Virus record (IMG/VR): IMGVR_UViG_3300014208_000032
Coordinates: 9,116-73,115 of that record
Reading direction: 5' to 3' (one strand)
Length of the DNA stretch: 64,000 nucleotides
Origin: a virus
Shown piece after piece: positions 14,398-61,559 of this stretch (position 1 is its first letter; each line of letters begins with the position of its first letter). The notes beneath the pieces were generated by a model, which did no database searches, was not told the origin of the DNA, and was given only the letters and a program-made list of their open reading frames with translations. The position numbers and the translations under genes were made by a program.

Positions 14398-15021
14398 TTA
14401 ATACCCCAACTTTTTATCTAATTTTTTATAATAATCTTTATTAACGCTTTTACCGATTGCTTTTTTATGATCTCTTTCTGTGCTACCAGTAAATTCCTTA
14501 AATCTTTTGTCTTGTTTTAGTTTTCTTTCGTGTTTATAAATAGAGGAATCTTTGTTTTTACCATTAATGTCGTTAATGTGTTTGTCAACTCTTTTTGAAA
14601 ATTGCGCTTTTTTACCTTCGGTAGTATTATCTTCGACAGGAGTTTCTTCTTTGTTAATCAATTTTTCTTTATTATCTTCATTTCCATCTTGGGTAGAAGT
14701 TTCGTCTTCTGGGGTTTCTTTGTTTTGTGTGATAGGTGTTGTTGCACTTTTTGTTGGTATTGTTGAAGATTTATTTGATCTAAATTTTGCTAATATTTTT
14801 TCATCCGATCCTTCTTTTGTTGGATCAGGACTGATTTGTATTTTTGTTACTCTTTTTGAGGTTGCTAAAGTAGGAGGTGCCCCTGGAGTTAAAGGTACTA
14901 CAGGCACAACAGAAGCGTCTTGTTGTTGTGTAGGATCAATTTGTTGATTTTTATCTACGGGAATATTTTCTGCTTCTGTGAAAAATGATAAAATCTTTTT
15001 AATACTTTTAGTGTAATACAT
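14398..15021 (-). CDS. hypothetical protein, probable processed virion protein
   Basis: Between terminase and portal; N-terminal FFTE|A; low complexity. Confidence 0.6.
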   Translation of the reverse strand: MYYTKSIKKILSFFTEAENIPVDKNQQIDPTQQQDASVVPVVPLTPGAPPTLATSKRVTKIQISPDPTKEGSDEKILAKFRSNKSSTIPTKSATTPITQNKETPEDETSTQDGNEDNKEKLINKEETPVEDNTTEGKKAQFSKRVDKHINDINGKNKDSSIYKHERKLKQDKRFKEFTGSTERDHKKAIGKSVNKDYYKKLDKKLGY

Positions 15022-15030
15022 TTAAACCTC

Positions 15031-16926: not shown

Positions 16927-16950
16927 TTAAATATGTATGATACGAAAATA

Positions 16951-17238
16951 TTATCTTCTATGTTTAAAAAGTTCAAGTTGAGATAATCTGTGATGTGCAA
17001 CTGCCTCTGGGGAAAGTTTTTTGTCACCTTTTTCTTTTCTGATTTTATTAACATATTGTGTGTCAATATAACCTTTTATTTTTCCCTTCTCATCTTTTAT
17101 TATAAGATAAAGAATTCCGCCTTCACTTTCTCCTTGTCTTTCTTTCCAGTCATCTTTTTCTTTAGAAGTTGGTTTAACAATTTCTTCATTAAGAACCTCT
17201 TCTTTTAGCAATTCATTTACCCTGTCTTTAAAATTCAT
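16951..17238 (-). CDS. hypothetical protein with capsid-targeting-like N-terminus
   Basis: MNFKDRVNELLKEEVLNE; C-terminal RLSQLELFKH. Confidence 0.6.
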   Translation of the reverse strand: MNFKDRVNELLKEEVLNEEIVKPTSKEKDDWKERQGESEGGILYLIIKDEKGKIKGYIDTQYVNKIRKEKGDKKLSPEAVAHHRLSQLELFKHRR

Positions 17239-18248
17239 TTCCTGTTCTCCTTTAATATTGTTAAAAATCCAAATTTCTCTGGTATTAAATCTGCTTCTGT
17301 ATAACTCTTACCTTTATCTCTGAAATTAATCTTTATCTTTTGATTGGCATCTCTTATTTTAGACATAAATTCTCCAACATATCTATTCCAATTTCTAAGA
17401 TTTTCTTTTGTGTTAATATTTGATTTAGAAATTCCTGGGTGGTGCTTTTCTGCAAATCTCTTTAAAAAATCTTGGCTATTAACCATTTTTGAAAAAGAAA
17501 CTCTATTTAATTTATTTTCCATTAGATCACTCACGATATTTTGAATATTAGCATTTTGTTCTGCTGGTTCTAAAAAATAATTATTAGAATTTGTTTCTAT
17601 GTTTTTGTTTTTATAAAGTCCCGTATTATGTTTTAAATTATCTTTTCCAATATAGGATGTTTTTTTTATTCTGGAATAATCTAACATATGAACCAATTCG
17701 TGTTTTAATATACGCCTGATTTCTGTTTTTTCTTTTTCTTTGTGAATATATAATATATTATTTTTTATGTTTATTTTTATAAAACTTTTTGTATCATCAA
17801 CGGATGGTAAAATGACGCTCATATCTTTTTGATATGTTTCCTTAGAAGAAACTGTTGCGTAATTATAGGGTTCTTTGTTTTCTATTTTTCTATCATCGAG
17901 TTCTCCATAAATATTAATATATGGTTTAAATATGACGTAGAATTTTTTTTTCTTAAACTCTTCTATATCATCTTTAGTTTTAAAGTTATTATCTTTTATA
18001 AAAGTATTCAAGAGAATCAAAATTTTGTCTGTAATATCTATTGTTTTTATTTTATTTCCAATTGAGTTTTTTATTGTTTTTTCAAGATTTACTTTATAAG
18101 ATTTATTTTTTTTTGGATCGAACAAAGTTGGTATAAAATTAAAGTCAGTTATATTATTTTTTAGCCAATCTAAATACTCATTTAGAATATATCTTGATAA
18201 AGATGTTGTTTCATAAACTGCTTCAAACAAATAAGTAAAATCTTTCAT
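17235..18248 (-). CDS. putative zincin metallopeptidase with capsid-targeting-like N-terminus
   Basis: LKHELVHMLD (HExxH) plus downstream YFLEPAEQNA; N-terminus MKDFTYLFE. Confidence 0.6.
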   Translation of the reverse strand: MKDFTYLFEAVYETTSLSRYILNEYLDWLKNNITDFNFIPTLFDPKKNKSYKVNLEKTIKNSIGNKIKTIDITDKILILLNTFIKDNNFKTKDDIEEFKKKKFYVIFKPYINIYGELDDRKIENKEPYNYATVSSKETYQKDMSVILPSVDDTKSFIKINIKNNILYIHKEKEKTEIRRILKHELVHMLDYSRIKKTSYIGKDNLKHNTGLYKNKNIETNSNNYFLEPAEQNANIQNIVSDLMENKLNRVSFSKMVNSQDFLKRFAEKHHPGISKSNINTKENLRNWNRYVGEFMSKIRDANQKIKINFRDKGKSYTEADLIPEKFGFLTILKENRK

Positions 18249-18341: not shown

Positions 18342-18779
18342 TTAATCTTCGTCATCTTCGTTGTCAAATTTATCAAAAGTGTCATCCACTTCATCATCAC
18401 CAATATCAATACTCCCACCAAATGGACTACGAACTTTGTTCGGTTTTCTATTTTCTTCTAACCCAAATTTTTCACGAATCAATTCTTCAACAGAAGACAG
18501 TTGTTCTAATGCTTTTTTACCAAGAGATCTTCTAATTATTTTTTTCTCTTCGTATTCTTGTTCTTTTTTTCTTACATCAACGATTGGCAAAGAATAACCA
18601 TTTCCAAAATTTGTTTCTGAAAATCTTGACGCAATTGAATCAAGCTCTCTTCTTAAATTAACAAAAGCATTAAGGAGATTTGCATCAGTTTCCAATTTAT
18701 CCGTAATTATTTTGTGCTCTTCTGAATTTTCATTAAGGGATGCTCTTAAATTATATAGAATTTGACTTTTAATACTCAT
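18342..18779 (-). CDS. hypothetical protein
   Basis: 145 aa; N-terminus ends SLNE. Confidence 0.6.
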   Translation of the reverse strand: MSIKSQILYNLRASLNENSEEHKIITDKLETDANLLNAFVNLRRELDSIASRFSETNFGNGYSLPIVDVRKKEQEYEEKKIIRRSLGKKALEQLSSVEELIREKFGLEENRKPNKVRSPFGGSIDIGDDEVDDTFDKFDNEDDED

Positions 18780-18780
18780 A

Positions 18781-19104
18781 TTACCTTCTTGTTAATTTTC
18801 TTTTATTTACGTCATAAGAATACTCTATGCCGTTGTCATCAGTTAATGACACAATAGAACCAACTTTACTTCTTGAATTAGCAATATCATCTGGAGTTAA
18901 TGGCTTTACAAAACTTTTAGTTAAATTACTATCAATAATGGCTGTTCTTATTTCTTTAATAACTTTAAGCCAGCTTGGTTGTCCAACAAGAGCTTGTTGT
19001 CCAGCAGGAGTTTTAGTGCTTAAACCATTAAATTTAACAATATCCAAGTTGGCTCCGGCCAATTCTGTTCCGTCGTTTTCTTTAATTAAATCAAAAAATT
19101 TCAT
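18781..19104 (-). CDS. hypothetical protein with capsid-targeting-like N-terminus
   Basis: MKFFDLIKE. Confidence 0.6.
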   Translation of the reverse strand: MKFFDLIKENDGTELAGANLDIVKFNGLSTKTPAGQQALVGQPSWLKVIKEIRTAIIDSNLTKSFVKPLTPDDIANSRSKVGSIVSLTDDNGIEYSYDVNKRKLTRR

Positions 19105-19119
19105 ATTAACCTTCTTAAA

Positions 19120-19542
19120 TTAACTTTGCGGATCATTGCTAATGTGATTAAATACATTTTGTAAATCTATTCCAGCTTTTCTCTCGGACACCACGTTGAT
19201 CATAACACCGTTGGCAGTTTTTGTTGCTTCGTTTTTCTTTGCTTTAATTTTAAGAAGTTCTATAATATTTTTACTTGCTTCTATTTTTAATTCAAGTGCC
19301 CGCATAACAGCTTCTTTAGAAGCTTGACTGTGATCTCTTCCAATAGCCAAATCTCCATAGAATAAAGAAAATAGTTGATCTGCTTTTTCTCTATCTTTAT
19401 TTACCATATCAACAAGGTGTTCACTAACACTTTCTTCGTCATTGGCATCCACTTTGATAATTTCTTGATTGTTTTTTGTTTCTAAACTTCTTACTTCAAT
19501 AGAAGCTAAATCTAAAATTTTATCTAATTCTGTATCCTTCAT
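19120..19542 (-). CDS. helical protein, possible small terminase
   Basis: 140 aa helical-hairpin pattern near terL; no diagnostic motif. Confidence 0.3.
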   Translation of the reverse strand: MKDTELDKILDLASIEVRSLETKNNQEIIKVDANDEESVSEHLVDMVNKDREKADQLFSLFYGDLAIGRDHSQASKEAVMRALELKIEASKNIIELLKIKAKKNEATKTANGVMINVVSERKAGIDLQNVFNHISNDPQS

Positions 19543-19751: not shown

Positions 19752-20420
19752 CTATTCCTCTGTAATTGATATCAAACTAAATAAATCATTTCTATATGGG
19801 ATTATATCCGCCATAAAAACTTTTATTTCTTTTGCTTTAAATCCAAACGACTTCACAAAATTAAACATATCAGTTCTTGAAATGAATTTTTTATTTTTAC
19901 GAATATATTCTGCCATTAACCCAGAGATTTGTAGATAATCTCTTCTTTTTTGTTTTAAAAAGTTTTCATTAATAATACCAATGAAAGTTCTTTCAAAATC
20001 ATCAGCAAAATTATCAATATTATTTGTTGGTTTTGCAATTAACTCAATCTGCATATCAACATCAGCATGCCCTCTGTGTTTTTTTCTTCTATCTGTATAA
20101 TTTAGCAAGCTTCTTTTAACTATCCAAGAAAAATAATTAAATGCTGTTCCTTTTTCAATATCAAATTTTAAATAATTTGTATAACAAGCGTGAATTCCGT
20201 GTTGAACACAATCTTCATAAGGTTCAAAAATATAATAGCGATAAAGTTGAATAATTGCTTTTACAATTTTCATTATTTCGTCTGTAATTTTGTTCTCAAG
20301 TTTGTCATCTTTGGATATAATCTTTATTTTGTTTTTTTCACCTAGTATATACTGTGTTGTAGTTTGATATTCTTTTATTAGACCACGAACATAATCTTCA
20401 TCGAAATAATTTTTAGCCAT
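19752..20420 (-). CDS. phage late sigma factor, gp55-like
   Basis: Region-2-like EDCVQHGIHACYTNYLKFDIEKGTAFNYFSWIVKRSLLNY; N-terminal KNYF. Confidence 0.75.
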   Translation of the reverse strand: MAKNYFDEDYVRGLIKEYQTTTQYILGEKNKIKIISKDDKLENKITDEIMKIVKAIIQLYRYYIFEPYEDCVQHGIHACYTNYLKFDIEKGTAFNYFSWIVKRSLLNYTDRRKKHRGHADVDMQIELIAKPTNNIDNFADDFERTFIGIINENFLKQKRRDYLQISGLMAEYIRKNKKFISRTDMFNFVKSFGFKAKEIKVFMADIIPYRNDLFSLISITEE

Positions 20421-21076
20421 TACTCGTCCTTTTTCATTACAATTATATAGTCATTAATTGTGTCGGGATTAAATTGATCGGGAAGGTTTGAGCCATCTTT
20501 TCTCATAAGTAAAGACATATTGTCTGAACCAGATAATTTATTAATTTTAAACCCAATTGATTCATCTACTTTTGAACCATAATCAATCGTGCAAAGGATT
20601 TTATCTTCTGTTTTCAAGAAGTCAGAAATTTTCTGTCTTTCTGGGGAAAGAACGATTTTAAATATTGCAACAACTTCTTCTGGAAATGATTTCCCGCCAT
20701 TACTATTTGGTTTGTTAGAAATGGAAGAAAGTAGATCATCTAGTGAATGAATATTTTCGCTCTCATCTTTTGAAAAAGAAATAATCCCTTTCTCTTTAAA
20801 AGAGAAACTCTCATCCTCAAGAATTAGTTTTCTTTTTCCTTTTCTTTTTACACTTTCGGTTTTTAATACAGGTTGTGGAGTTGGTAATGCTGGAGTAGAT
20901 GTATTTTCTACTTCAACTTTATCATTTTTTTCTTCGTCAGAAGCAATATCTGTTCCAGTTCTAAGAATTTGACAAGAAACATCGTAAAAACATTTAAATC
21001 CGTCTTCTTTGTTTTTCTTTTGTGCTACAATTTCATCTTCAAATAATTCTTTAACTATATTGAGTATTTTAGACAT
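20420..21076 (-). CDS. hypothetical protein
   Basis: 218 aa, translationally coupled. Confidence 0.6.
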   Translation of the reverse strand: MSKILNIVKELFEDEIVAQKKNKEDGFKCFYDVSCQILRTGTDIASDEEKNDKVEVENTSTPALPTPQPVLKTESVKRKGKRKLILEDESFSFKEKGIISFSKDESENIHSLDDLLSSISNKPNSNGGKSFPEEVVAIFKIVLSPERQKISDFLKTEDKILCTIDYGSKVDESIGFKINKLSGSDNMSLLMRKDGSNLPDQFNPDTINDYIIVMKKDE

Positions 21077-21948: not shown

Positions 21949-23628
21949 TTAAACTCCAATTTTTTTGTTAAGTTCCTCTATTACTTTTCTTACTTCTACT
22001 TCATTTACGCCTTTAAGAGAACCTTCTCCTTGAAGTTTAAATGCACCAGTTGAATCTTTCATTTTAGTGCTTATTCTTGAAAGATATTTACCTAATTTTG
22101 ATCCTATTTCTTTTCTCATTTCTTTTTTCTTGTCTTCGTCTTTGACTCTATTCACTCTTGCCATTAGTTTATCAAAAGCATCACTAACAATTTGTCTAAT
22201 TCTTTGCATTTCTTTTTGTTCTGGGTTTACTTCGCCTTTTTTTAAGTCAGTAAGGAGTTCGTTTGGTGTTTTTGGAATTGCTTTATGTTTTTTGATAATA
22301 TCAGCCATTTCACTTTTAGAAAGAGGGGTTTCTTTTTCCTCATCCTTATTTAATAACCCTGCTTTTCTGTCTTTTAATTGTTTATTTTTTTCTTCCATAT
22401 CTCTAGTGTTTTTTGCTTGCAAATCTAAGAGTTTTCCAACAGAAGTTTTTCTCAAAGTTTTCTCTTGTTTTATAAAATTGTCAATAAGAAAATCAAGTTT
22501 TTTTGCCACAGAAATAATATCTTCTTTTTTCTTAATCGTAGGGAGGTCAATAATTCTTTGTGTATTATCTCCTGCTTTTGTTGATATATTTTTTGCTTCT
22601 TTTTTAGAGGCAACGATATCCATCCCTTTTTCTGTAAAAGCATCAACTGTTTCATTATATTTCTCTAAAAAATCATAAACTGGTTTTAAGTGTTTAATTA
22701 TATTTTCTAGTCCAACATATTTAACTTCTAAATCAATTATTCCAGTAGGGGTTTTTGTTGATATTTTACCTCTTGTTAGTGGTTCTATTAATTCTTTTAA
22801 CTCTTCTAATTTTGCTTCTCTTTTTATGCTGTCTTCTTTTTCTGTTGAATTAAAATCAATATTTGATATATCTACTTTTTTTATTAATATGTTATCTTTG
22901 TTTACACCTTGGGTTGATTTAGATTGTTTTTTGAAACTGGAAACATTTTTAAAATCAGCCATAATTTCATCATAATCTTTAACTACATCTTTTGAAACTT
23001 TTGCTAAAAATTTAAACAATCTAATTTTTTCTTCTGTTCCTAAAACTCTTCTTGCTTTTTGAAAATCTTCTACTGATTTTGCTAGTTCTTTTTCTTTTTC
23101 ACTATTTGCTGTCTTCAAAAGATCATCAACAACTTCTCCATAGTTTGTTAAAAATTCTCTAACTTTTGCTAGATCGCTATTTTCAAAGGATGTTTTTCCA
23201 GAGATTTCATTTAAATCATCAGATAATTTCTTTCTAAAATTATATTCTTCTTCTGCTGATTTTTCTGTTCTTCCTGTTTCGTGTTTCCCTTTTTGTTGAA
23301 GAACACTTTCTCCTTGTCCTCCGACAGCAACAACTTTTACTTTATCTTCTTTGGTTGCTTCCCCTGCATATTTTTTTACAAGTTCTTCGTTTCCACTTAA
23401 TCCAAGTTCTGAGATTCCAGATAAAAACGGAGATGTTAAACTACCATTAGTGTTATACATTCTAACGGATTTTCTTTTAGCAAAATCAACAACGAACTTT
23501 ATTTTTTCTTCTTTCCCTTCTATTTTAGAAAGATCAATTTCGCTATACCATTTTCCCTTGCCGATTGCTTTGCCGTAAGCAGCACCACCAACAGCCATCT
23601 CATTTAAAAATTCTTTAAAACTTTTCAT
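21949..23628 (-). CDS. large helical protein with T4-type capsid targeting sequence
   Basis: N-terminus MKSFKEFLNE (cf. T4 internal proteins MKTYQEFIAE). Confidence 0.65.
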   Translation of the reverse strand: MKSFKEFLNEMAVGGAAYGKAIGKGKWYSEIDLSKIEGKEEKIKFVVDFAKRKSVRMYNTNGSLTSPFLSGISELGLSGNEELVKKYAGEATKEDKVKVVAVGGQGESVLQQKGKHETGRTEKSAEEEYNFRKKLSDDLNEISGKTSFENSDLAKVREFLTNYGEVVDDLLKTANSEKEKELAKSVEDFQKARRVLGTEEKIRLFKFLAKVSKDVVKDYDEIMADFKNVSSFKKQSKSTQGVNKDNILIKKVDISNIDFNSTEKEDSIKREAKLEELKELIEPLTRGKISTKTPTGIIDLEVKYVGLENIIKHLKPVYDFLEKYNETVDAFTEKGMDIVASKKEAKNISTKAGDNTQRIIDLPTIKKKEDIISVAKKLDFLIDNFIKQEKTLRKTSVGKLLDLQAKNTRDMEEKNKQLKDRKAGLLNKDEEKETPLSKSEMADIIKKHKAIPKTPNELLTDLKKGEVNPEQKEMQRIRQIVSDAFDKLMARVNRVKDEDKKKEMRKEIGSKLGKYLSRISTKMKDSTGAFKLQGEGSLKGVNEVEVRKVIEELNKKIGV

Positions 23629-24284
23629 TATCTATTTTCCCTATTGGCGTCAACAGTTTTAAAAACTTTTCCTGCTGGAACTTTTATTTTACTAGCATTA
23701 GCTAAATGCTCTTGGCTATCATCAACAAATTTTACTACTTTGTATTTGCTTAAAAACTTTTCAAGTTGTGGATTTTTATTATAACCTTTATAAATACCTT
23801 CGGCTCTTTTTTTCTCGTCATTGATTGCGTGAATGTTTGCTGGATTAAGTTTGGGAACCATAACTAATTTATCCCCTACTTTTGCTCTCAGCCAATCTCT
23901 AATGGCTTGTTTAACGGAATCTTCTACACCTCTGGCGGTTATTATGCCAACATGCCATCCTGCCTTTACGTGCCTATCCAACATCTTTAAAACAGGAAGC
24001 TTCCCTTTCCCGTAAACAATACTGGTATAAATTTTATCCGGATCTCGAAATTCTCTAAAATCCCAAGTTTCACCGTTTTTAGTTGATAGTTTCTTTTGTT
24101 CTTTTGTCATTCCATCATATTGTTCTGGGGTTAATTTGTTAATATCTTTTTTGCCTGTTGGATCTTTTAAATAGATAAAAATATCCTTTGCTGTCAGCAA
24201 AGTATTATCAATATCAAAAACAATAATTTTATCATTAGTTCTTTTGTCTTGAAGTTCTTCGTTTAATAAATCTTTAATTGTCAT
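23628..24284 (-). CDS. HAD-superfamily phosphatase with capsid-targeting-like N-terminus
   Basis: FDIDNTL, IITAR, K, FVDD motifs; MTIKDLLNE. Confidence 0.8.
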   Translation of the reverse strand: MTIKDLLNEELQDKRTNDKIIVFDIDNTLLTAKDIFIYLKDPTGKKDINKLTPEQYDGMTKEQKKLSTKNGETWDFREFRDPDKIYTSIVYGKGKLPVLKMLDRHVKAGWHVGIITARGVEDSVKQAIRDWLRAKVGDKLVMVPKLNPANIHAINDEKKRAEGIYKGYNKNPQLEKFLSKYKVVKFVDDSQEHLANASKIKVPAGKVFKTVDANRENR

Positions 24285-24796: not shown

Positions 24797-25333
24797 ATGG
24801 ATTTTAAAGAAAAAGTTTTGGAATTACTTGAAGGAATTGTTAATCCAGATTTAAACAAAGTTTATGGTGGCAAGAAAACTGGAGCTGCTTATGTGAACAA
24901 ACAAGGAACAAGAATTTCTCTTGGTGCGGATGTTCCAAAAGATATTGTTCTTTGGATTAGAAAAAAAAATAAAGATGGCGTTCCTGTTGGAACAATTACT
25001 AATCAATTAAAAATCCACATTGAAAGATGGTTAACCAATCCTAAAAACAAAGAAGTATTAGCAAAGAAATATCAAGAACTTGTTGGTAAAGATTTTCTCA
25101 CACAAGAAGAGGCACTAAGAAAACCTGGTGGAATAGCTTCTGAACTTATTGAAATTGTTTTAAAAGGAAGAACCACAAAAGAAGGAGTTGCTGCGAAAGC
25201 AAAACAACAACCAATAACTAAGGTTTTTAATAAAGAAAAAGATTTTGAAGAAAGAGTTAAAAGACAGATGATTAAAAATCCAAAATTATCAGAAAAACAA
25301 ATTCGCTCTTCTTTGGGAAGGATTTTTAAATGA
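24797..25333 (+). CDS. hypothetical protein with capsid-targeting-like N-terminus
   Basis: MDFKEKVLELLE; AGGAG SD; motif upstream. Confidence 0.6.
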   Translation: MDFKEKVLELLEGIVNPDLNKVYGGKKTGAAYVNKQGTRISLGADVPKDIVLWIRKKNKDGVPVGTITNQLKIHIERWLTNPKNKEVLAKKYQELVGKDFLTQEEALRKPGGIASELIEIVLKGRTTKEGVAAKAKQQPITKVFNKEKDFEERVKRQMIKNPKLSEKQIRSSLGRIFK

Positions 25334-27264: not shown

Positions 27265-27726
27265 ATGGCAACACTAAGAGAAATTTTTGAAGAGACATTA
27301 AACGAAGAACTTGGATCTAAAAACGGAAAAATGAGATTGGCAGACAGAGATGCTTTTTCAGAACTAGTAGGTAATTTAAACCCAAAAACAAAATCAAGTT
27401 TGTTGTCTACTATTGCAAACGGAACAAATGATCAAATTTTTGCAGCACTAAAAGCTGCGTCTACTGGTATGCCTTATAATAAAAGGATTGATGAAATCAA
27501 AGAAGCTGGTGATTTTGATAAATTTATCAACTCCATCAAAGGAATGAAAACAACTGAATCAAAAGTTGTTGTTTCTTATGACAGAAACAAATCATCTACA
27601 TTTAGAAAAAACTTAAAAGATACCAGAAACCAATTTGCCGATAAAGTTGCCACTGATGCAGAAAAACGCCCTGCTTTTTCAAAAAAAACAGACCTTGCAA
27701 ATAAAATAAAGGGTGATTGTAAATAA
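27265..27726 (+). CDS. hypothetical protein with capsid-targeting-like N-terminus
   Basis: MATLREIFEETLNE. Confidence 0.6.
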   Translation: MATLREIFEETLNEELGSKNGKMRLADRDAFSELVGNLNPKTKSSLLSTIANGTNDQIFAALKAASTGMPYNKRIDEIKEAGDFDKFINSIKGMKTTESKVVVSYDRNKSSTFRKNLKDTRNQFADKVATDAEKRPAFSKKTDLANKIKGDCK

Positions 27727-38564: not shown

Positions 38565-39211
38565 AATTTGAAGATCTTATTAATGAGATGGAATCTATGA
38601 GTTATGACAGCGGACACGACAGAAGCATTGCCGATGTTTCTACTCATGCCACCCATCATACTGCCCCACCAGAGGCAAGTATTAATTCAAGAAGTTTTAA
38701 AGATTTTGAAAACTTTACAGATAGAGTTTCAGATAAAGATATGCATCTTGATATGAATAATGATAAAAAAATTGATACAGATGAATTAAAAAGATATGTC
38801 AACTGGACTGCTAAAAAATTAGGAGTTCCGCAAGAGATTGCTTTGGCTGTTGTGGAAAGAGAAAGCAATTGGAATCAGAATGATGTTTCCAGAAACAGAA
38901 ACGGAACAAGAGATGTGGGATTAATGCAACTAAATTCCAGTAATAGAAAATATTTTGAGGATAAGTTTTGGACACCAGATCACCATGGAATAAAATTTAA
39001 TCCAATGAACCCAGAACATAATGTTGAGGTTGGTATTAAATATTTAAAATGGCTAAATACTTATTTTGATGGAGATTGGGGTAAAGCAATTATGGGATAT
39101 AATGCCGGTCCAGGAAACGTAAAAAGAGATACGATTCCTGATTCTACCAGAAATTATTTAAAATTTGTTATGGATTTTGTTGGCGACAAAGCAAAGAAAT
39201 ATTTTGGATAA
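38561..39211 (+). CDS. lytic transglycosylase (SLT) with capsid-targeting N-terminus
   Basis: AVVERES, GLMQL, NVEVGIKYL, YNAGPG; MKFEDLINE. Confidence 0.9.
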   Translation: MKFEDLINEMESMSYDSGHDRSIADVSTHATHHTAPPEASINSRSFKDFENFTDRVSDKDMHLDMNNDKKIDTDELKRYVNWTAKKLGVPQEIALAVVERESNWNQNDVSRNRNGTRDVGLMQLNSSNRKYFEDKFWTPDHHGIKFNPMNPEHNVEVGIKYLKWLNTYFDGDWGKAIMGYNAGPGNVKRDTIPDSTRNYLKFVMDFVGDKAKKYFG

Positions 39212-39224: not shown

Positions 39225-39506
39225 ATGAAAAAAATAAAAGATTTAATTCTTATGAACTCTCTTTTGCTAACAGAAGATGAAAAACCAGAACAAGAGAAAA
39301 TAGACGGGAAAGAAGATAAAGATTGGCAAATAAAAACAGGAGCTGAAGTAGAGAAAGAACACGCTGGAACTTATGAAGAAGTGCAAAAGATTTTTAAAAC
39401 AACTGGCAAATATCCATCATTAGAAGATTATTGCTTAATGATTGTTAATGATCACCTAAAAGAAGATCCAAAATATTATTCTAAATTAGTGAAATTTGGA
39501 TTATAA
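39225..39506 (+). CDS. DUF5661-like phage protein
   Basis: GAEVEKEH...DHLKEDPKYYSKL. Confidence 0.6.
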   Translation: MKKIKDLILMNSLLLTEDEKPEQEKIDGKEDKDWQIKTGAEVEKEHAGTYEEVQKIFKTTGKYPSLEDYCLMIVNDHLKEDPKYYSKLVKFGL

Positions 39507-43200: not shown

Positions 43201-43329
43201 GGGAGTTCTGTAATCAATTTTCTCTAAAAATTCCAATCCGGGTATTATAGCATTAAGATCTTTGATTCCACTTCCGGTTGTTTTCTTTTTAAACATTATA
43301 TTATTTCCTTTTGTTATTCCCACTGGCAT
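40267..43329 (-). CDS. virion structural/fibre protein with inserted repeat beta-propeller
   Basis: NRPIEN N-terminal motif, DPILTLN..AGIEIQRG fibre module, seven ~41-aa repeats. Confidence 0.75.
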   Translation of the reverse strand: MPVGITKGNNIMFKKKTTGSGIKDLNAIIPGLEFLEKIDYRTPYSINRPIENINYNVGKIIDFLEQSAVFNFSGGIFKNTIFDIDLSLEIVNGIQFLYLSPGAGVSRKTEIDIARADLVGKVIPNNVFFNNYIDVDLFSRILNKIIFPTNDIEFGNYNFEVKLTANGKFKARSFIDGTYDYFIGTGVDDLTNWEDDTVGFAKSFELIVYINASILRSNLYLNKIFTAFSGDVSLIPSLGIIPIPVAGKYLISTNELGEVVLVSTTWAGAPDPSVFTNDFYFVEITGTPGTYVLANTYDQRDFFARETQFNAGNVANTIVSKENGDGSITTLFNLFDDPDSRIQFWTGTGIGASKIMEITPTSVDIVVATTNVNVNSLNSTDPILTLNKNGTALSTNMAGIEIQRGIGLDSYYIVFDEETDTFKVGTSVDGIVKTSLQAIATRENTPLDGGVAIWNAATNRFDTASIGNSVVQALPVDMGVAVWDSTTNKLETRSDVKIGLVIDMLSPPTKTSLATLPSFTNKDAHLYNNKVYITNAFGVNFVIMDLSDNSFSTISGLTSMITSTSQIYNGKLYLPQSGGVNMDIVDLSNNSVTTISTLTAFTKNTSQIYNGKLYLPQSGGVNMDIVDLSNNSVTTISTLSNHNRYTSQIYNGKLYLPHSSILTGGNIADVVDLSNNSVTTLTLISNHNRFTSQIYNGKLYLPQSGGVNMDIVDLSNNSVTTISTLSSNDKYTSHIYNGKLYLPLRNSTNMDIVELSTNSKTTENILTNVNHDISFINLNKIYVPQYSGTNIDIVLLSNEYEKTTIDTATTINNTLTVTGTITGTTIKSTNLVGGNNTTLLGSIPYQSNVDVTTLLSPNTTTVKKFLTETGTGTNGAAPVWGNILDETGVTTGDVFYYDTTTSELKRIYGMRYNISEQIVEVKKIRVISNLEIPTPIITPAMSFTTLVGGSQIVLADANAPPGASTRVIQQETSPGVWGANIGLNTGITAITSTSYTFRAYYLNTEYAADSLYHTITGVAT
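40945..41770 (-). repeat. seven ~123-nt tandem coding repeats (SQIYNGKLYLPQSGGVNMDIVDLSNNSVTTISTL)
   Basis: Near-identical DNA units, e.g. TTGTGGTAAATAAAGTTTTCCATTATAAAT. Confidence 0.85.
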
Positions 43330-43760
43330 TATAGATTTTCCTTGTCTTTTTTAATTAAATCTTGTATTTCTGTCTTTCCAAAAAACCAGTCGTTTTCGTT
43401 TTTTGTTTTAAGATTTTTGACATACATTTTATTATATCTTCTCAAAAGAGGGAGAGCATCGGGGAAAAAATATTTAATTCTTTTATATTTTTCTTCTTTA
43501 TTAACAGATAACATTCTGGCGAAACTATCAATTTCATCAATTGCTCTCATTGCGTATTTTTTATTATCATAATAATTTACATTAAAACCAAGAATATCAC
43601 TTCTTTTGCCATAGGTTTTTTGGTGAGGTTGTCCTGGATATTCAAAATCCAATACTTTTACTTTTGGGTTAGGATCTTGCTTAAAATTGTCGTATTTGAA
43701 TTTAACAAGTACTGCATCTTCGCTGAGAACAATTTCTTCATATAATTCTTGAAACTTCAT
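43329..43760 (-). CDS. possible gp2-like DNA end protector; capsid-targeting-like N-terminus
   Basis: FKY..DPNPKVKVLD..LGFNVNY..RRY pattern; MKFQELYEE. Confidence 0.4.
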   Translation of the reverse strand: MKFQELYEEIVLSEDAVLVKFKYDNFKQDPNPKVKVLDFEYPGQPHQKTYGKRSDILGFNVNYYDNKKYAMRAIDEIDSFARMLSVNKEEKYKRIKYFFPDALPLLRRYNKMYVKNLKTKNENDWFFGKTEIQDLIKKDKENL

Positions 43761-49455: not shown

Positions 49456-49881
49456 ATGAACATATTAGAATTGGCAAAACAAAAACAGGATAGTATTGAT
49501 GACAAAAGATTAAAAATTATTAAAGAAAGAGAAGAGGAAGAACAAAAAGAGAGAAATGATTGTAATATTTTTTTTGAAAAAACATTGAAGATATTAAAAG
49601 AACTTGAAATAGATGCAGTAAGTCCAAATAATTATTGGGAAGGTATAAATATATCGCTAACAAAAGATATAGATATTAAAATAGGTGTTATTAGTAGTAG
49701 CTATATAACGATTAGATCTTATTTAAAAGAATTTCATTATAATTATGATGTAGAAACAAATTTTGTTTACATAAAACCAAATGCGGAAGGTTTTATAGAC
49801 GAAAGTAATAAAAGAATAATTCAATATAGTGCTGAATTTTTGGAAAAAGTGTTTAAAAAATTAATTTCTGACTATAATTAA
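49456..49881 (+). CDS. hypothetical protein
   Basis: AGGT SD; N-terminal coiled coil. Confidence 0.6.
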   Translation: MNILELAKQKQDSIDDKRLKIIKEREEEEQKERNDCNIFFEKTLKILKELEIDAVSPNNYWEGINISLTKDIDIKIGVISSSYITIRSYLKEFHYNYDVETNFVYIKPNAEGFIDESNKRIIQYSAEFLEKVFKKLISDYN

Positions 49882-50432
49882 CTAGTTATTTTTTTTCTTT
49901 TCTTAATCTTATCTCTTATTTTTCTAAATAAAGCAATACCAGCGGCGAGAGCAAGCGTTCCGCCGCCAATAGCAGTAGCAACTCCTGTGTCAAACATCAT
50001 AGGAGAACTATTATTATTGGGTATTCCACCAGAAGCAATAGTTTCCAACCTAGAAAGAGTTGCGTCAGGAAAGTCCCATCCGTTGTTTTCTGCACCTTTA
50101 ATCTTGCTAATATATTTATCCAATTCTTTTGTTAATTCGTTTTTATCAACATAAGTTTTATCCAATCCTTCAATATTTCTAACTGCACCACTTCTCATAA
50201 TTCCAATATCAAATGGTAAAAAACTTTCATAAAAATCTTTAGTAAAATTATTCTTAATATATTCAGCAAAATTGTTATCATTTTTTACAATCTCTGCAAT
50301 TTTATCTTTTGAAAACGTAAACAAATTAAGAAACAACAAATCACTTTCAATGTCAAAATTGTTTGTATTAACATAACTCTCGTTAAGAGTTCTTCCCTCA
50401 ATTCTTAAAAGGATTTGTTGTTTATAATTCAT
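49878..50432 (-). CDS. tail-anchored membrane protein with TLNE|S leader
   Basis: C-terminal GVATAIGGGTLALAAGIALF followed by RKIRDKIKKRKK. Confidence 0.65.
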   Translation of the reverse strand: MNYKQQILLRIEGRTLNESYVNTNNFDIESDLLFLNLFTFSKDKIAEIVKNDNNFAEYIKNNFTKDFYESFLPFDIGIMRSGAVRNIEGLDKTYVDKNELTKELDKYISKIKGAENNGWDFPDATLSRLETIASGGIPNNNSSPMMFDTGVATAIGGGTLALAAGIALFRKIRDKIKKRKKITS

Positions 50433-53050
50433 TATATTTTCTCCGTCACTGTCATTTCTTTTTCTTTAATAGAAGCAATATCTGCATCTGTTAAATTGCC
50501 AGAGATTATCCAATTCTTATCTGGTGCATTAAATCTTGCTTTGTAAATATTTTTCAACCAATCTTTATTAGGAAATGTTTTCCCACCAATTAAATAGGTT
50601 TTATTAGCAGATTTTACTTCAGCAATATTCTTAGCAGCATTAGAAACAGCAGATTGAGCTGCTACTTTTGGAATTTCTTTGTCAGGAGCTGGTTCAAATT
50701 TCTTCATATTCATTTCATAAGAAGCATCAGTTTCTTTATATGTAGGAGTAGATCCTTTAAGAACTTCTTGAAGTTTCTTGTTAACAATAGCAACAATTCT
50801 TTTGATAATAACTTTAGGAACAGCAGACAATACATCTTTAATTTCAGTTTTTGGTAGATTTTTTGCTTTAATGTCTTCAAGTTGTTTTTTAAGTGGTTCG
50901 ACATTAATTCCTCTTGCTTCTAATTTTTTAATTCTAACTTCCATATCTTTTTCTTTGTCAGATATTTGTCTCACGTTTTTAGGGGCAAGAGTTGGCATAG
51001 ACAATTTAGAAATTGTAACAATTGGTTTGTGTCCACCAACTTGTTTTTCAACCTTCTCAATACCAAAATCAAATAAAGTTTTATCATAACCATATTTACT
51101 ATGAATATCTCTAATTTCTTTAGAAGTATCACTTTTTATTTCTTGAATAGCTTGTTTACCAATTTCTACTAAATTAATTCTACTGGCAGTTTCTTTATCA
51201 AGATCACTATTAACAGCAAATTGAATCATATCATTCCAACTTCTAAAATAGACAGGAAATCTTCCAAATTCTTTATCCTTCAATACAGGAGGAAGAAATC
51301 TGTTCATATCTTTAGGACTTTCTGCCCCCATTAATACAGAAGAAACCTTAACCATATTGGAAGTTTCAGGGTTCATTTGTTTTTCAATCTGCCCTTTTAA
51401 TTTTTCTCTTCCAGTTGCTATCTCTGCTTTATAACTAGACGCATCATTTGCATCATTTCTTCTTCCAGCTTTATCAATAAAATTAAGATCTTTCTTTCTT
51501 GCTTGAAGAGCTTCTTTCATTCCTTTTAAATCTTTGGCATAAAGAGGTTTAGTAAATTCTTTTATCTTATAATCTTCCCAGCCAGATTTATTTGCAAGAG
51601 TTTCGATTTCTTTAGATTTAGATTGCCAATTTCCTGATAAAAGTTTCTCAATATCTGTAATAACTTTTTCTTCATGAAATGTAGAACCTTGTAGAGCTTT
51701 TCTTTTTGTTGTTTTTGATAATTTAGAAAGTGATTCTGCATCCCTGTTTTTATAGAAAGAAGATTCAGCTTTAATTAATTCTTGTCCTTTTTTAGAAAAC
51801 ATTGTATTAAGAAAACTAATCAAGGTTGGTTTAGCATTTCTAATGAGATATTCTGTTATTCCAGTAGTTCTTGTGTTGGCAGATCCGTGAACCATGTCTG
51901 GCTTAATCATTTTGGAAATAATAGAATTAGATATATGAGCAAAGTTTTCTTTAATACTATCATCCATTTTCACAAGTTTTTCAAGAGAAGTAAAATCTGC
52001 ACTATCAACTCTTTTCAAATCAGATATAAATTTTTGATCAGCAATATTTTGTGTATGAAATGTAGCAAGTCGAGATGTGTCTGATTTATAAACTTGCTTC
52101 ATGTCTTTAGAATGTTTGAAATAATCATTAGTAATTTTAGCTAGGTTGTTTACTTGTTGAGGAGTGGCAGTATATTTCTTTTGTTCTAAAAACTTATTAA
52201 TAGCTTCTTGAACACTTTCTTTTCCTTCTACTGCTTTAATAAACTCATCAAAAAGCCTATCATAAACCTCTCTATTCCTCATAGAAGTATCAATTGGTCT
52301 TGTATTATAATCAGTTGATCTTGCATAATCTTTTTCAATATTATTTAGTTCGGTATATTTTAAAGCTTTAAGCATTTCAATTTTTTTATCAAAAGATTTC
52401 TCTTCATAAACTTTTTTCAATTCTGCATATAATTGATCTTTTTTTAAACTTCTATCAAAATTAGCAGTAAGATCAGACATTCCAACAGGAGATCCGCCAC
52501 CAGCAATGCTTCTTAAATCTTTTCTTAAATCATTATACATACTTACAAGAGCAGATTTGTATTTTTGATTTTTACCTTTTATGACATCAAGTTTTCCTTG
52601 GGTTTGTTTTCCAAGAACTCCCTTGATATCAAAAATCTCATCAAGTTTATTTTGAATTACTTTTCTAATAGCAGAGGAAGAAGAATCCGATCCATGTCTT
52701 ACAGATCCGATAGATTGTTTAATGTCTTTCTTTTCGTGGTGGTCAGAAACCCAATAATCTTTATTACCAAGAACTTTATCTGTTTCATCTCCAAAATCTC
52801 CAAAATCAACAACAACACCTTTTTGCCCTTTTTTTAAATTCCAAACATCTTTAGCGTTTGCTCCATATTGAACAGGGACTAGAACAATTTGTTCTGGCTT
52901 AACTCCTTGCTTGAGTAATTGATTGTAAGCCATAGTGGCAGAAGAAATTCCGTCTAAATCAGTGTGATGGAGTAATTTTATTGATTTCTCTGTTCCTTTT
53001 TTTCCTAAGTTAATACCACTTTCTGTTATGTATTCTTTAAAACTTTTCAT
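50432..53050 (-). CDS. DHH/DHHA1 phosphoesterase-like protein with large insertions and capsid-targeting sequence
   Basis: HTDLDG, VVDF, SDHH, GGHK motifs; N-terminus MKSFKEYITE. Confidence 0.75.
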   Translation of the reverse strand: MKSFKEYITESGINLGKKGTEKSIKLLHHTDLDGISSATMAYNQLLKQGVKPEQIVLVPVQYGANAKDVWNLKKGQKGVVVDFGDFGDETDKVLGNKDYWVSDHHEKKDIKQSIGSVRHGSDSSSSAIRKVIQNKLDEIFDIKGVLGKQTQGKLDVIKGKNQKYKSALVSMYNDLRKDLRSIAGGGSPVGMSDLTANFDRSLKKDQLYAELKKVYEEKSFDKKIEMLKALKYTELNNIEKDYARSTDYNTRPIDTSMRNREVYDRLFDEFIKAVEGKESVQEAINKFLEQKKYTATPQQVNNLAKITNDYFKHSKDMKQVYKSDTSRLATFHTQNIADQKFISDLKRVDSADFTSLEKLVKMDDSIKENFAHISNSIISKMIKPDMVHGSANTRTTGITEYLIRNAKPTLISFLNTMFSKKGQELIKAESSFYKNRDAESLSKLSKTTKRKALQGSTFHEEKVITDIEKLLSGNWQSKSKEIETLANKSGWEDYKIKEFTKPLYAKDLKGMKEALQARKKDLNFIDKAGRRNDANDASSYKAEIATGREKLKGQIEKQMNPETSNMVKVSSVLMGAESPKDMNRFLPPVLKDKEFGRFPVYFRSWNDMIQFAVNSDLDKETASRINLVEIGKQAIQEIKSDTSKEIRDIHSKYGYDKTLFDFGIEKVEKQVGGHKPIVTISKLSMPTLAPKNVRQISDKEKDMEVRIKKLEARGINVEPLKKQLEDIKAKNLPKTEIKDVLSAVPKVIIKRIVAIVNKKLQEVLKGSTPTYKETDASYEMNMKKFEPAPDKEIPKVAAQSAVSNAAKNIAEVKSANKTYLIGGKTFPNKDWLKNIYKARFNAPDKNWIISGNLTDADIASIKEKEMTVTEKI

Positions 53051-53075: not shown

Positions 53076-53450
53076 TTATTCGCTACTATAAACTACAAAT
53101 TTCTTTTTATCTTTCTCGTCTATGAAATCAATATTGTTTATTTTTTTAAATCCAATTGAATTATGTAAATTTATACTTCTATCATTATCATTACTAATTA
53201 CAGAATAAAATAATCCAAATTTTTTCTTAGCTTCTAATAAAACTAATTTTGCTAATCCTTGTCTTCTAAATTCTTTATCTATTTGTATAAATATTTCCTT
53301 CTTGTTTTTTAAGACATCATTAGTCAATATATCAAAATAACCAATTATTTTATTGTCATAGATAATATCATAATTATCTCTATCTTTTTCTTTCTTTGTT
53401 AGTTTAAATATTATTGTTTTATTTTCATTCAATAAATCAAATAGTTTCAT
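53076..53450 (-). CDS. GNAT acetyltransferase with capsid-targeting-like N-terminus
   Basis: FRRQGLA (motif A), NDRSINLHNSIGF; start reassigned to ATG 53450 (MKLFDLLNE). Confidence 0.8.
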   Translation of the reverse strand: MKLFDLLNENKTIIFKLTKKEKDRDNYDIIYDNKIIGYFDILTNDVLKNKKEIFIQIDKEFRRQGLAKLVLLEAKKKFGLFYSVISNDNDRSINLHNSIGFKKINNIDFIDEKDKKKFVVYSSE

Positions 53451-58788: not shown

Positions 58789-58801
58789 AACGTGAATAAA
58801 T

Positions 58802-58833: not shown

Positions 58834-58847
58834 TATAATCAAAAGAA

Positions 58848-61010
58848 TTATAAAATTACATAAGTAAAAGTAAAAATCATAGAAATAGATGCTGTTGTGG
58901 TCCAACCACCAGAATTTTGAAAAATTGCTGTATTGTTAGCGGTGTCAGCATATATAGCCATAGTAGAACCAAGAGTGTTAGATATTGCTGTTCCAGCAGT
59001 ATTAAATGCAGAAACTAATTCAGAAGCAACGGGAAGTGTTATATAAAACGCCGTAGAAGTAGAGGCAGAAGTTGTGGAAACTTCTACTATTCCTGATACA
59101 GTTACTACATTTCCAACTCTCATCCAATTGGACAAATTGGTGGTTATAACAGAAGTATTTGCAACCCCAGTTGCAGTGGGTGTATAAGTTCCTGAAGCAA
59201 TGTATTGATTAACGGTTCCAGTAACTGCCCCAGCATTATTATGCAATGCTGCTCCATAAATTCTCCCATCAGTAGTTACAGAAAAACAGTTGTTTATTAC
59301 TAAACTCCCTCCATTTGAACTGATAATGTTTGGACCAAGATAGGTATAATTTCCAGAACCATCAAATATTCGAATAGCTGTATTTTGTGTTGCTATGTCA
59401 CCATAAAAAGTCATTTCTTTGGTAGATAAATTACCACACATCGTAGCATAACAAGATACAATACAATAATTTGTTGGATTATTTCCTAGTATAAATCTGT
59501 CTGGGCAACCAAATAAATTATAACCAGCACCATTACCAATAAAATTAGAACCAGAAGAACAATAAGCTCCATAGCCAGCATTAATTCCAATAAAATTAGA
59601 ATTAGAAGAGTTATAAGCATCATAACCAGCACTAGTTCCAATAAAATTAGAATTAGAAGAACAATAAGCTCCATTTGAACCGCCGTCACCAGTTCCATTT
59701 CCTATAAAATTAGAGTTATTGGAACAATGTGCACCAAATCCAGCACACATTCCAATAAAATTAGAATGAGAAGAATTAAGAGCTTCACGCCCTGCATTGC
59801 TTCCAATAAAATTGGAACTCAAAGAACAAGTTGAATTAAATCCAGCACTATTTCCAATAAAATTAGAATTAGAAGAACTAGTAGCTCTTCTCCCAGAATC
59901 GTTTCCTATAAAATTAGAGAAAGAAACACAACAACTTCCAATTCCAGCACAGGTTCCAATAAAATTAGAATTACAAATTTCAAAACTACAAGCACTAAAA
60001 CCAGAGAAAAAACACCCACCGGCAGAAAATCCTATAAAATTAGAATAGTGAGAATTATAACTACAATATCCAGCACAAGTTCCAATAAAATTAGAATGAG
60101 AAGAACAACAGGCATTATATCCAGAATTATCACCTATAAAATTAGAACCAGAGGAAAGACAAGTATTCACTCCGGAATTGTTTCCTATTTTTACTTGGTT
60201 ACAAGAGTTTGTTTCAAATTTAATACAGCCACATCCATCACTAATAATAACACTATTTGAGACATCTCCTATTGGAACGACTTTGCCGATACAATTCCCA
60301 ATCAGTGTATTGTAGTTTCCATCAACAAGCCCTCTTCCAGAATGATGACCCAAGATTACATTCCAACATCCATTTTTTAAATAACATCCATCAACATCGC
60401 TCACATAACCAGAATTTCCACCAATTAAAATATTTGTGTTTGCACCTCTCAAGCGTAATCCAGAGTTCAAACCAATTCCAATATTTCTTTCGCCAGTCAT
60501 TCCACCACAGGCAGTTAATTCGCCTTTCAAAGCGCTAAATCCAATTCCAATATTTCTGCCTGTTCCACCAACTCCGCACCAATTTTGAAGAACTTGACTA
60601 CCCACAGCTACTTGAACAAATGATTCAGATGAAAAATAAAGATTAGTGGTCCCAACAATTGTGTTATAATCACCACAAACCATAATAGGGGCATTTCCAG
60701 CTCCTAAATTTGTATTATATCCTCCACAAACAAGACAAGAAAAACCTTCAATTCCAACTGATGTATTAGCACTGGTTCCTAAAATAAGAGCATTGCAACT
60801 TGCTGATACAAACGAACATAATGAATTTATTCCTATAGCTATATTACACACGGCATTGGAACATAAATTAGAACAAAGAGCATTTGTTCCAATAGAAATA
60901 TTATTACAAGCATCTCCACGTTTTATGTTGTCTACGTTAGCATCCAATACGCCTAAAATTTCTACATTTAATTGTTTAAAGCAACAACTTTCCAAATTTG
61001 TATAAGCCAT
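58848..61010 (-). CDS. Cys-rich beta-solenoid tail fibre / receptor-binding protein
   Basis: 12 SNFIG-x-x-AG repeats, ~39 Cys; C-terminal domain homologous to 30933..34595. Confidence 0.75.
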   Translation of the reverse strand: MAYTNLESCCFKQLNVEILGVLDANVDNIKRGDACNNISIGTNALCSNLCSNAVCNIAIGINSLCSFVSASCNALILGTSANTSVGIEGFSCLVCGGYNTNLGAGNAPIMVCGDYNTIVGTTNLYFSSESFVQVAVGSQVLQNWCGVGGTGRNIGIGFSALKGELTACGGMTGERNIGIGLNSGLRLRGANTNILIGGNSGYVSDVDGCYLKNGCWNVILGHHSGRGLVDGNYNTLIGNCIGKVVPIGDVSNSVIISDGCGCIKFETNSCNQVKIGNNSGVNTCLSSGSNFIGDNSGYNACCSSHSNFIGTCAGYCSYNSHYSNFIGFSAGGCFFSGFSACSFEICNSNFIGTCAGIGSCCVSFSNFIGNDSGRRATSSSNSNFIGNSAGFNSTCSLSSNFIGSNAGREALNSSHSNFIGMCAGFGAHCSNNSNFIGNGTGDGGSNGAYCSSNSNFIGTSAGYDAYNSSNSNFIGINAGYGAYCSSGSNFIGNGAGYNLFGCPDRFILGNNPTNYCIVSCYATMCGNLSTKEMTFYGDIATQNTAIRIFDGSGNYTYLGPNIISSNGGSLVINNCFSVTTDGRIYGAALHNNAGAVTGTVNQYIASGTYTPTATGVANTSVITTNLSNWMRVGNVVTVSGIVEVSTTSASTSTAFYITLPVASELVSAFNTAGTAISNTLGSTMAIYADTANNTAIFQNSGGWTTTASISMIFTFTYVIL

Positions 61011-61559
61011 TTATCTCTCCTGCCTTCTAATATCTTTTTTAGCTGCAGAAATTATACTGTCAGTTCTGCTTATTATATTTTTATCTAACATACTAACAAC
61101 CAGAGGAGTTAAAATTACTGATAAAGTATTCCCTCCGAGTTTTCCAAAGAAATTATGACGAGCATTATCATCAGGAATAAGTGCTCCTAATGCAAAATAA
61201 GATAGTAAATAGGTTAAACTACCTATGCCAATGATACTAACTATATTCAAGAACGTATTAATGTTATACTCTTTAAACATTAAATTGTAATCTTTTTTGA
61301 GTTCATTATACTTTAATTTGATACTTTCTTTATCTTCTGCTACTTTATATTCATTTTCTAATTTATTTAATTTTGTATAAAGTTTTCTTAGGTAGTTAAG
61401 AAGAATTTTAATCTTTCGTTTTTGTTTTTCTGTTATCTCTTCTAAGTCAACATTTTTCTCAATTTTGTGGATTATATCAATAACTTTATTGCTATCTTTT
61501 AGCCATTTAATTCCTTCGTTGAGAGTTGAGATATTAAGAATATTTTCTTTTATGTTCAT
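61011..61559 (-). CDS. membrane protein with TLNE|G leader
   Basis: MNIKENILNISTLNE; coiled coil; C-terminal hydrophobic helices. Confidence 0.6.
   Translation of the reverse strand: MNIKENILNISTLNEGIKWLKDSNKVIDIIHKIEKNVDLEEITEKQKRKIKILLNYLRKLYTKLNKLENEYKVAEDKESIKLKYNELKKDYNLMFKEYNINTFLNIVSIIGIGSLTYLLSYFALGALIPDDNARHNFFGKLGGNTLSVILTPLVVSMLDKNIISRTDSIISAAKKDIRRQER

Follow-up and report, generated by a model that had tools for sequence, protein, structure and literature searches.

Why do a phosphoesterase, a phosphatase, an acetyltransferase, a cell wall hydrolase and a series of small, mostly basic proteins, all encoded by one phage, begin with short leaders that end in the kind of motif at which the major capsid protein of the same phage is predicted to be cut? 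The question is raised by a 64,000-nucleotide stretch of viral DNA, hereafter the window, which spans bases 9116-73115 of one viral record 159,813 bp in length (IMG/VR IMGVR_UViG_3300014208_000032; 30% G+C, CheckV completeness estimate 69%). The original prediction for the window was that about 20 unrelated proteins carry T4-type capsid-targeting sequences (CTS) and together form an injected enzyme toolkit much larger than that of T4. We consider it likely that the leaders are capsid-targeting propeptides of the T4 type, and the proteins behind them are very probably substrates of the prohead protease that are loaded into the head. So read, a distant lineage uses the mechanism known from T4, with a cargo list that is larger and enzyme-rich; the set is not unique.

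Cleavage motifs at the N-termini of late proteins

Open reading frames (ORFs) were called genome-wide with a simple ORF caller and divided into 107 late and 90 other genes, 'late' meaning that the box AAG[AT]TA[AT] occurs no more than 45 nucleotides (nt) upstream or that the gene closely follows such a gene on the same strand. Motifs were counted where their Glu fell at residues 5-20, and expected values were taken from internal windows. The strict, capsid-type motif [LI]-[NT]-E occurs in this position in 18 of the 107 late proteins, where 2.8 would be expected (p = 4e-10, approximately 6-fold), and in 3 of the 90 non-late proteins, which is background; the loose form [LI]-x-E is found in 52 of 107 (20 expected, p = 2e-12) and, again at background, in 20 of 90. 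Late and non-late genes differ by Fisher's test (p = 2e-4), and the position of the Glu in late genes peaks at residues 9-10. Control motifs in which Asp, Lys or Gln replaces the Glu at P1, or Val or Ala occupies P3, give no excess in late genes. The concern, voiced with the original prediction, that the motif might be equally common in early proteins is not borne out, since non-late proteins remain at background.

All 14 N-termini that were originally listed are found where that list placed them, and these genes do sit behind a late motif, as was claimed for most of them, the box AAG[AT]TA[AT] being present upstream of each candidate or its operon. The start at 53450, for example, is supported by a late box (AAGATAAT) 3 nt before the ATG. 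Without their leaders the candidates would be basic proteins, with a median isoelectric point (pI) of 9.4 versus 5.65 for other late proteins (p = 1e-5), a property that was not used in choosing candidates, which were picked by their N-termini alone; basic mature parts fit DNA-associated internal proteins. The observation holds up, and the figure of about 20 tagged proteins comes down to approximately 17 good candidates in the window, four of which (14398, 18342, 20420 and 61011) lay outside the earlier list. One listed gene, 21076-21282, is a false positive, rejected as cargo on the grounds that its 12 orthologues have no such site. Also rejected were the large terminase, whose N-terminus M-I-L-N-E is a chance match, and 19752-20420, in which the site falls inside a conserved domain.

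The protease that would read such sites is encoded in a T4-like head module on the minus strand, its genes in T4 order. This prohead maturation protease of the T4 gp21 type (9064..10686 (-), Peptidase_S77; PF03420 3.9e-15, phrog_207 1.2e-34) contains a LAGLIDADG intein of approximately 355 residues directly 3' of the catalytic-His motif G-E-L-D-H-P; the intein begins with Cys and finishes with Asn, and the residue at +1 is Ser. In an alignment with three intein-free orthologues and T4 gp21, residues H70, S469 and D500 are invariant, leaving the His/Ser/Asp triad intact, and the enzyme should be active once the intein is spliced out. Its own N-terminus has a conserved Q-[LI]-x-E site. Most orthologues of the protease are free of inteins and some are of similar length (e.g., 568 aa in the relative L053); many relatives have inteins in the large terminase instead, a gene (15031-16926) that is intein-free in the present genome.

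Two proteins of the capsid supply the sites against which the leaders can be read. The major capsid protein (5528..7222 (-), Gp23 fold, PF07068 1.7e-45) is predicted to lose a 73-residue propeptide, and a second Gp23-fold protein that resembles the gp24 vertex protein (456..1886 (-), PF07068 1.8e-24) a 24-residue propeptide. Both end in L-N-E|A-P, the bar marking the predicted cut, which agrees at the level of sequence with the original claim that the two share an LNE|A site. The counterpart of this junction in T4 gp23 is L-T-E|A. Among 12 relatives with terminases 40-60% identical, the capsid junction [LI]-[NT]-E|A-P stands at the same place in 11, and a second L-N-E a few residues upstream of it is kept in most. 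Between the protease and the capsid gene, in the position of gp22 in T4, lies a scaffold candidate (7361..8245 (-), 294 aa) that had no match in family scans and is conserved in relatives at 44-57% identity. Cut motifs are crowded in it, 5 of them strict and 16 loose (8 and 3.8 times the genome mean), a density that ranks second in the genome. A core of the T4 gp22 kind, which is chopped up, would be expected to show this.

Conservation of the junctions among relatives provides a further line of evidence. Terminase relatives at 40-60% identity number more than 100, and the comparison took in 79 IMG/VR loci and 14 whole records, including G001 and G002, each approximately 200 kb. N-terminal motifs are in excess in both of these (23 versus 7.7 expected in G001, 21 versus 7.9 in G002) and in all relatives pooled (130 versus 63 expected, p = 4e-14). 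Across six orthologous families the length (5-19 residues) and sequence of the leader vary and the residues flanking the Glu are fixed. Leaders on orthologues of the DHH phosphoesterase at 50432 are 5, 10, 12, 18 and 19 aa long, each followed by E|[SA]-G-I, with E10, G12 and I13 invariant; in the nucleotidyltransferase-like family of 37731 (four orthologues) the junction is always E|[NS]-[IV]-L-D, with E14, L17 and D18 invariant. The junction is kept likewise in the HAD phosphatase at 23628, where four orthologues retain an [LIM]-x-E site ahead of D-x-D-x-T, and in a 209-aa protein encoded outside the window. The two orthologues of 43329 (57% and 42% identical) carry leaders 10 and 12 aa long, with L12 and E14 invariant. 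In 16951, the orthologue from the closest IMG/VR relative has a different leader and the same junction (I-D-E|S), then the same K-P-T-S motif, and in 20420 seven orthologues have a hydrophobic-x-E site, then a Lys-rich linker that varies and a core, F-Y-x-[VI]-D, that is conserved. Three homologues of 61011 share the junction E|G-[IL]-x-[WFY]-[FL]-K.

The leaders also appear to be exchanged. In the closest relative (terminase 91% identical), two proteins of whose 33.6-kb contig were compared, the orthologue of 21949 is 82% identical overall and keeps both the junction and, apart from one Lys-to-Arg change, the leader. The 12-aa leader of 24797 is almost the same as the one that the DHH orthologue carries in a different relative (L046), indicating that leaders move between cargo proteins, and leaders of one type are found on unrelated proteins from different phages. 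A second, long class of 15-20 residues with the core E-E-I-x-K-N-S-G-V likewise occurs on unrelated proteins across the clade; the leaders of 61011 and 49878 resemble it.

Comparison with the T4 record links the short class to the known signal. T4 ipII and ipIII begin with the published CTS, the 10-residue sequence that the original prediction had quoted. The short leader of the present phage resembles this CTS and matches T4 ipI in 6 of the first 7 residues and T4 gp61.1 in 7 of 10, the three changes all being conservative. T4 gp61.1 itself (54 aa, hypothetical, T4 record 18966-19130, adjoining the primase gene) has a 10-residue ipI-type leader ending I-K-E and looks like an unrecognised CTS-bearing protein of T4. 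A CTS is sufficient to package foreign proteins and is removed by gp21; the internal proteins of T-even phages are diverse and share just the CTS, and T4 Alt, an enzyme, loses a 6-residue propeptide (PMC3012670, PMC5694885). What does not survive the comparison is the claim of scale. The same pipeline run on T4 finds N-terminal [LI]-x-E in 63 of 267 ORFs versus 45.8 expected, an excess of approximately 17 where the present genome has approximately 35, so the set is about twice that of T4 and not an order of magnitude larger, and two related genomes are similar. The T4-type identity of the leaders stands on the motif shared with the capsid site, the S77 protease with its triad, the late genes and the T4-like leader sequences.

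Candidate cargo genes in the window

Two of the enzymes are firmly assigned by their domain matches. The predicted lytic transglycosylase (38561..39211 (+), 216 aa; 9-aa leader, I-N-E|M) has an SLT domain at residues 80-191 that scores 84.1 bits against PF01464 (cut-off 21.3; 7.2e-24), and it also matches phrog_342, 'internal virion protein with endolysin domain' (7.6e-15). The predicted GNAT acetyltransferase (53076..53450 (-), 124 aa; 9-aa leader, L-N-E|N) scores 28.8 bits against PF00583 (Acetyltransf_1; cut-off 20.7), and no orthologue of it was found. Conserved motifs make good cases for two more. The 872-aa DHH/DHHA1 phosphoesterase (50432..53050 (-); 10-aa short-class leader, I-T-E|S-G-I; late box at -26) falls under the PF01368 cut-off (25.7 versus 28.1 bits) and its best PDB profile match is weak (E = 0.011), but H-x-D-x-D-G, S-D-H-H and G-G-H are invariant across five orthologues. 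The HAD-type phosphatase (23628..24284 (-), 218 aa; 9-aa leader, L-N-E|E; late box at -25) has weak matches to DUF2608 and Acid_phosphat_B, a match to phrog_415 (2.7e-9) and the motif D-x-D-x-T. In two relatives the HAD domain forms the N-terminus of a protein of 857 or 1013 aa (in G002, L032:700-3741 (+)), and near residue 401 of the G002 fusion stands V-L-T-E|M-A-V, a sequence similar to the junction that other phages have in a separate gene downstream. This could be a hint, at an alignment E of 0.48 (non-significant) no stronger than that, of a protease-jointed polyprotein or a split gene.

The remaining two enzyme names are weaker. The product of 37731..38564 (+; 277 aa, 14-aa leader, L-D-E|N-V-L-D, late box abutting the ATG), described as a probable Pol-beta-type nucleotidyltransferase, had no Pfam match. 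Its G-S...S-D-x-D motif is invariant in four orthologues, and its nearest Atlas clusters (language-model neighbours) carry NTP_transf_2 at a score of 0.96. An AlphaFold2 (AF2) model reached a predicted local distance difference test score (pLDDT) of 64 overall and below 50 at residues 1-21; in a Foldseek search with this model the top rows include nucleotidyltransferases at a non-significant E of 0.06-0.3, and in a VIA-wide structure search the match was limited to a helical bundle. It may be a nucleotidyltransferase, a tentative assignment. Similarly, 17235..18248 (-; 337 aa, late box abutting the ATG), whose 9-aa leader ends L-F-E|A and which has L-N-E as a second site at residue 24, might be a zinc metallopeptidase by virtue of H-E-x-x-H alone. 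The sequence H-E-L-V-H at residue 183 is kept in the sole homologue (45% identical), Atlas neighbours (LPD23, SprT-like) are both weak, and no family match rose above threshold. PDB sequence searches with 37731, 21949 and 50432 and with the profiles A2 and A3 returned nothing usable beyond one weak DHH-like row. The originally proposed enzyme list thus holds for the transglycosylase and acetyltransferase, above Pfam cut-offs, and by motifs for the DHH and HAD proteins, and is weak for the nucleotidyltransferase and the metallopeptidase.

Several candidates are neighbours of these enzymes. The operon of 37731 includes both the transglycosylase gene and 39225..39506 (+; 93 aa, 17-aa leader, L-T-E|D), a putative DUF5661 protein that scores 25.8 bits against PF18905, under the cut-off of 27; its predicted mature part is acidic (pI 5.0) and no orthologue was found. 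A Lys/Glu-rich protein of 559 aa with no family match (21949..23628 (-); 10-aa short-class leader, L-N-E|M-A-V) has a start that overlaps the end of the HAD gene. The operon of the DHH gene includes, downstream of that gene, 49878..50432 (-; 184 aa), an orphan that has a hydrophobic segment near its C-terminus and whose long-class leader, 18 aa in length, ends in the strict motif (L-N-E|S). A C-terminal hydrophobic segment is also present in 61011..61559 (-; 182 aa), with a 15-aa long-class leader (L-N-E|G-I) and a late box that abuts the ATG.

PHROG scans of the small candidates assigned no function. Most are basic: 16951..17238 (-; 95 aa, 18-aa leader, L-N-E|E); 18781..19104 (-; 107 aa, 9-aa leader, I-K-E|N, late box at -22), of which no orthologue was found; the orphan 27265..27726 (+; 153 aa, 14-aa leader, strict motif L-N-E|E, late box at -44); 43329..43760 (-; 143 aa, 14-aa leader, L-S-E|D, late box abutting the ATG), whose AF2 model is unusable (pLDDT 43); and the very basic 24797..25333 (+; 178 aa, pI 10.1, 12-aa leader, L-L-E|G, late box at -32). 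A weaker candidate, the basic, low-complexity protein of 14398..15021 (-; 207 aa, 16-aa leader, F-T-E|A), is encoded between the portal and terminase genes and had no family match and no orthologue. The protein of 20420..21076 (-; 218 aa) is conserved clade-wide, with an [LFI]-x-E site at residues 10-17. An acidic orphan, 18342..18779 (-; 145 aa), has a 17-aa leader with the strict motif at residue 17 (L-N-E|N); the pI of its mature part, 4.7, points to a part played in the core or scaffold and not to DNA-bound cargo.

The head module further contains the portal gene (12383-14395 (-)), then two small genes before the protease, and a 267-aa gene (-) between the protease and the scaffold-like gene. 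By capsid, the nearest phage-collection records are uncultured huge phages and a Flavobacterium phage (25-28% identity), and identity to the T4-like coliphages is approximately 23%; the vertex protein had no tblastn match in the phage collection, and the capsid protein as a single-protein locus query had none. Two paralogous homing-endonuclease genes (phrog_3339 / phrog_559; 1978-3714 and 3789-5483 (+)) lie between the major capsid and vertex genes on the opposite strand. Two TnpB-like genes (window 43886-45037 (-) and genome 123949-125208 (-)) each have a late box just 5', and one of the two copies adjoins the tagged gene 43329-43760, immediately upstream. Outside the window, at genome 126000-148000, early genes are preceded by a recurring promoter that resembles those of sigma-70 (TTGACA and TATAAT separated by an A/T-rich spacer), and none of them has the leader.

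The short leader beyond the clade

Back-translated into a nucleotide pattern and scanned over IMG/VR, the short leader matched at least 120 contigs, compared with 3 matches for a codon-scrambled control. Among the matches listed, the leader sits at or within a few codons of an ORF start, with the upstream frame open for no more than 20 codons in most, and homologues of T4 genes are nearby in 101 of 120 loci. The 112 complete ORFs behind the leader in these matches fall into 44 unrelated clusters, hence at least 44 families, among them another phrog_415 HAD phosphatase and a cytidylyltransferase-like protein. The form of the leader is kept even in phages with a capsid that is only approximately 23% identical to that of T4. 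In a full-text literature search the CTS term occurred in 21 papers, and none of them was a survey of it across phages.

Two features of these distant loci can be recorded alongside. The commonest leader-bearing family among the matches listed (approximately 190-220 aa; 49 of 112 ORFs, L221-L340) is usually encoded near homologues of T4 gene 3, tail sheath and terminase, often behind a T4 late promoter (TATAAATA), and its PHROGs match, 'virion structural protein', is weak. On an unrelated 104-kb IMG/VR contig (L239:2357-3913 (+)), four consecutive small genes have the same 10-residue T4-type leader and one of them encodes a predicted HAD phosphatase; the run is a putative cargo gene cassette like the T-even ip loci.

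We put forward tentatively, with more doubt than confidence, a broader proposal: that the leader M-K-[ST]-[FY]-[KQ]-E-[FY]-[LI]-x-E is a near-verbatim address label across the T4 superfamily, from which the head-packaged sets of uncultured T4-like phages could be read, and that in the present phage it would mark an injected enzyme kit (DHH, HAD, nucleotidyltransferase, acetyltransferase, cell wall hydrolase) acting before phage gene expression, with nucleotide-based defence signalling or the cell wall as examples of what it could act on. Proteins that enter along with the DNA are at work before the phage expresses its genes and are thus prime candidates for anti-defence or takeover functions, and finding them is difficult unless virion proteomics is available. 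Should the leader prove a reliable label, a list of injected proteins could be drawn up from sequence alone for uncultured T4-like phages, here with several enzymes; the T4 capsid-targeting rule would hold far outside the T-even group, and the leader would be a natural portable packaging tag, of relevance to T4-based protein delivery.

Alternative explanations and known systems

We infer a course of docking, cutting, retention in the head and ejection with the DNA. Late in infection approximately 17 proteins from the window (approximately 25-30 genome-wide) would be made with acidic-hydrophobic first 9-18 residues that end in [L/I]-x-Glu, most often L-N-E or I-T-E. The leader would dock each protein onto the scaffolding core during prohead building, as in T4, and after shell closure the spliced gp21-type protease (9064-10686) would cut after the Glu, at the same site as in the capsid and vertex proteins. 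The mature, mostly basic proteins would remain in the head with the DNA and probably exit with it at the next infection, a cargo of DHH phosphoesterase, HAD phosphatase, GNAT acetyltransferase, lytic transglycosylase and probable nucleotidyltransferase together with many proteins of no assigned function. Ejection, and with it a role in host takeover or anti-defence, we only infer.

The tagged proteins might instead be assembly parts only, a core or scaffold that the protease degrades and that is then expelled, with nothing delivered to the next host. T4 gp22, gp67 and gp68 behave as degraded assembly parts (PMC5694885); the mature parts of 18342 and 39225 are acidic, 7361 and 10776 have many internal sites, and one 61011 homologue is located inside the head-gene cluster of a relative. 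Yet the enzymes keep their catalytic motifs across orthologues and contain the strict motif almost solely at the N-terminus, most mature parts share the basic character of those T4 internal proteins that remain with the DNA, and a phosphoesterase of 872 aa would be odd as a scaffold, which leads us to regard this account as unlikely. A role for the leader as a signal of some other kind, read as a recognition tag by a modifying enzyme or as an export or lysis-timing signal (e.g., for the transglycosylase), could draw on the proximity of 24797 and the transglycosylase to lysis or cell wall functions. No radical-SAM gene was found in the genome record (69% complete), however, the leaders are hydrophilic and acidic, unlike signal peptides, and they end exactly in the capsid maturation motif; we give such machinery the smallest chance of any explanation considered here.

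It is also conceivable that the leaders are no signal at all and represent generic amphipathic helices at the N-terminus, or a preference of late or leaderless mRNAs for AU-rich codons at the start. Their codons are AU-rich (K, F, E, N, I, L), the promoter abuts the ATG in five candidates, and the reversed motif E-x-[LI] is enriched in late genes as well. But Lys codons are equally AU-rich and [LI]-x-K is not enriched, nor are [LI]-x-D and [LI]-x-Q; ordinary ribosome-binding sites precede ten candidates, junctions are kept while leader length varies, and scrambling the codons of the leader all but abolished the IMG/VR matches. We therefore find this explanation very improbable.

The reading of the leaders as capsid-targeting propeptides must itself be tempered by several considerations. 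The phage is uncultured, and a search for the virion proteome of any relative found none; about half of the candidates are orphans, so that their junctions cannot be checked; and several leaders end in the loose motif alone (L-D-E, L-S-E, L-L-E, L-F-E, I-K-E). The two candidates whose mature parts are acidic may be pieces of scaffold, destroyed and not retained, the transglycosylase could serve in lysis, and 24797, as the first gene of an operon that runs on into lysis genes, argues for caution. Genes were called with a simple ORF caller and labelled 'late' by a motif of 7 bases, chance matches occur (the large terminase; 21076), and the genome record is approximately 69% complete.

Among known systems the nearest is that of T4 IPI, IPII, IPIII and Alt, with which the present one shares an S77-family protease and its triad, cleavage after the Glu of [L/I]-x-E and the logic of the capsid propeptide, as well as N-terminal leaders (5-19 aa), late expression and basic mature proteins, both predicted here from sequence. 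In T4, too, unrelated cargo including an enzyme (Alt) stands behind a conserved leader (PMC3012670, PMC5694885). Unlike T4, the present phage has at least two leader classes, the short T4-like one and a clade-wide one of 15-20 aa; its cargo classes (DHH, HAD, GNAT, SLT, nucleotidyltransferase) are not known in T4 heads; its protease carries an intein; and its system is known from sequence alone. In phiKZ and SPN3US many head-internal proteins, including virion RNA polymerase subunits, are likewise cut after the Glu of a short motif and ejected (PMC5694885, PMC7411985). Their motif, however, is [S/A/G]-x-E, their propeptides mostly exceed 100 residues and their protease is S80, a distant relative of S77, in contrast to the short T4-like leaders found here. 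The tagged transglycosylase (38561-39211), through its match to phrog_342, recalls the T7-type gp16 core protein and other internal virion proteins with a lytic transglycosylase domain, which place an SLT domain inside the head for local cell wall digestion during DNA entry. T7 gp16 is a core protein of 1318 aa that is not loaded through a cleavable CTS, whereas the SLT protein described here has 216 aa and a 9-aa leader.

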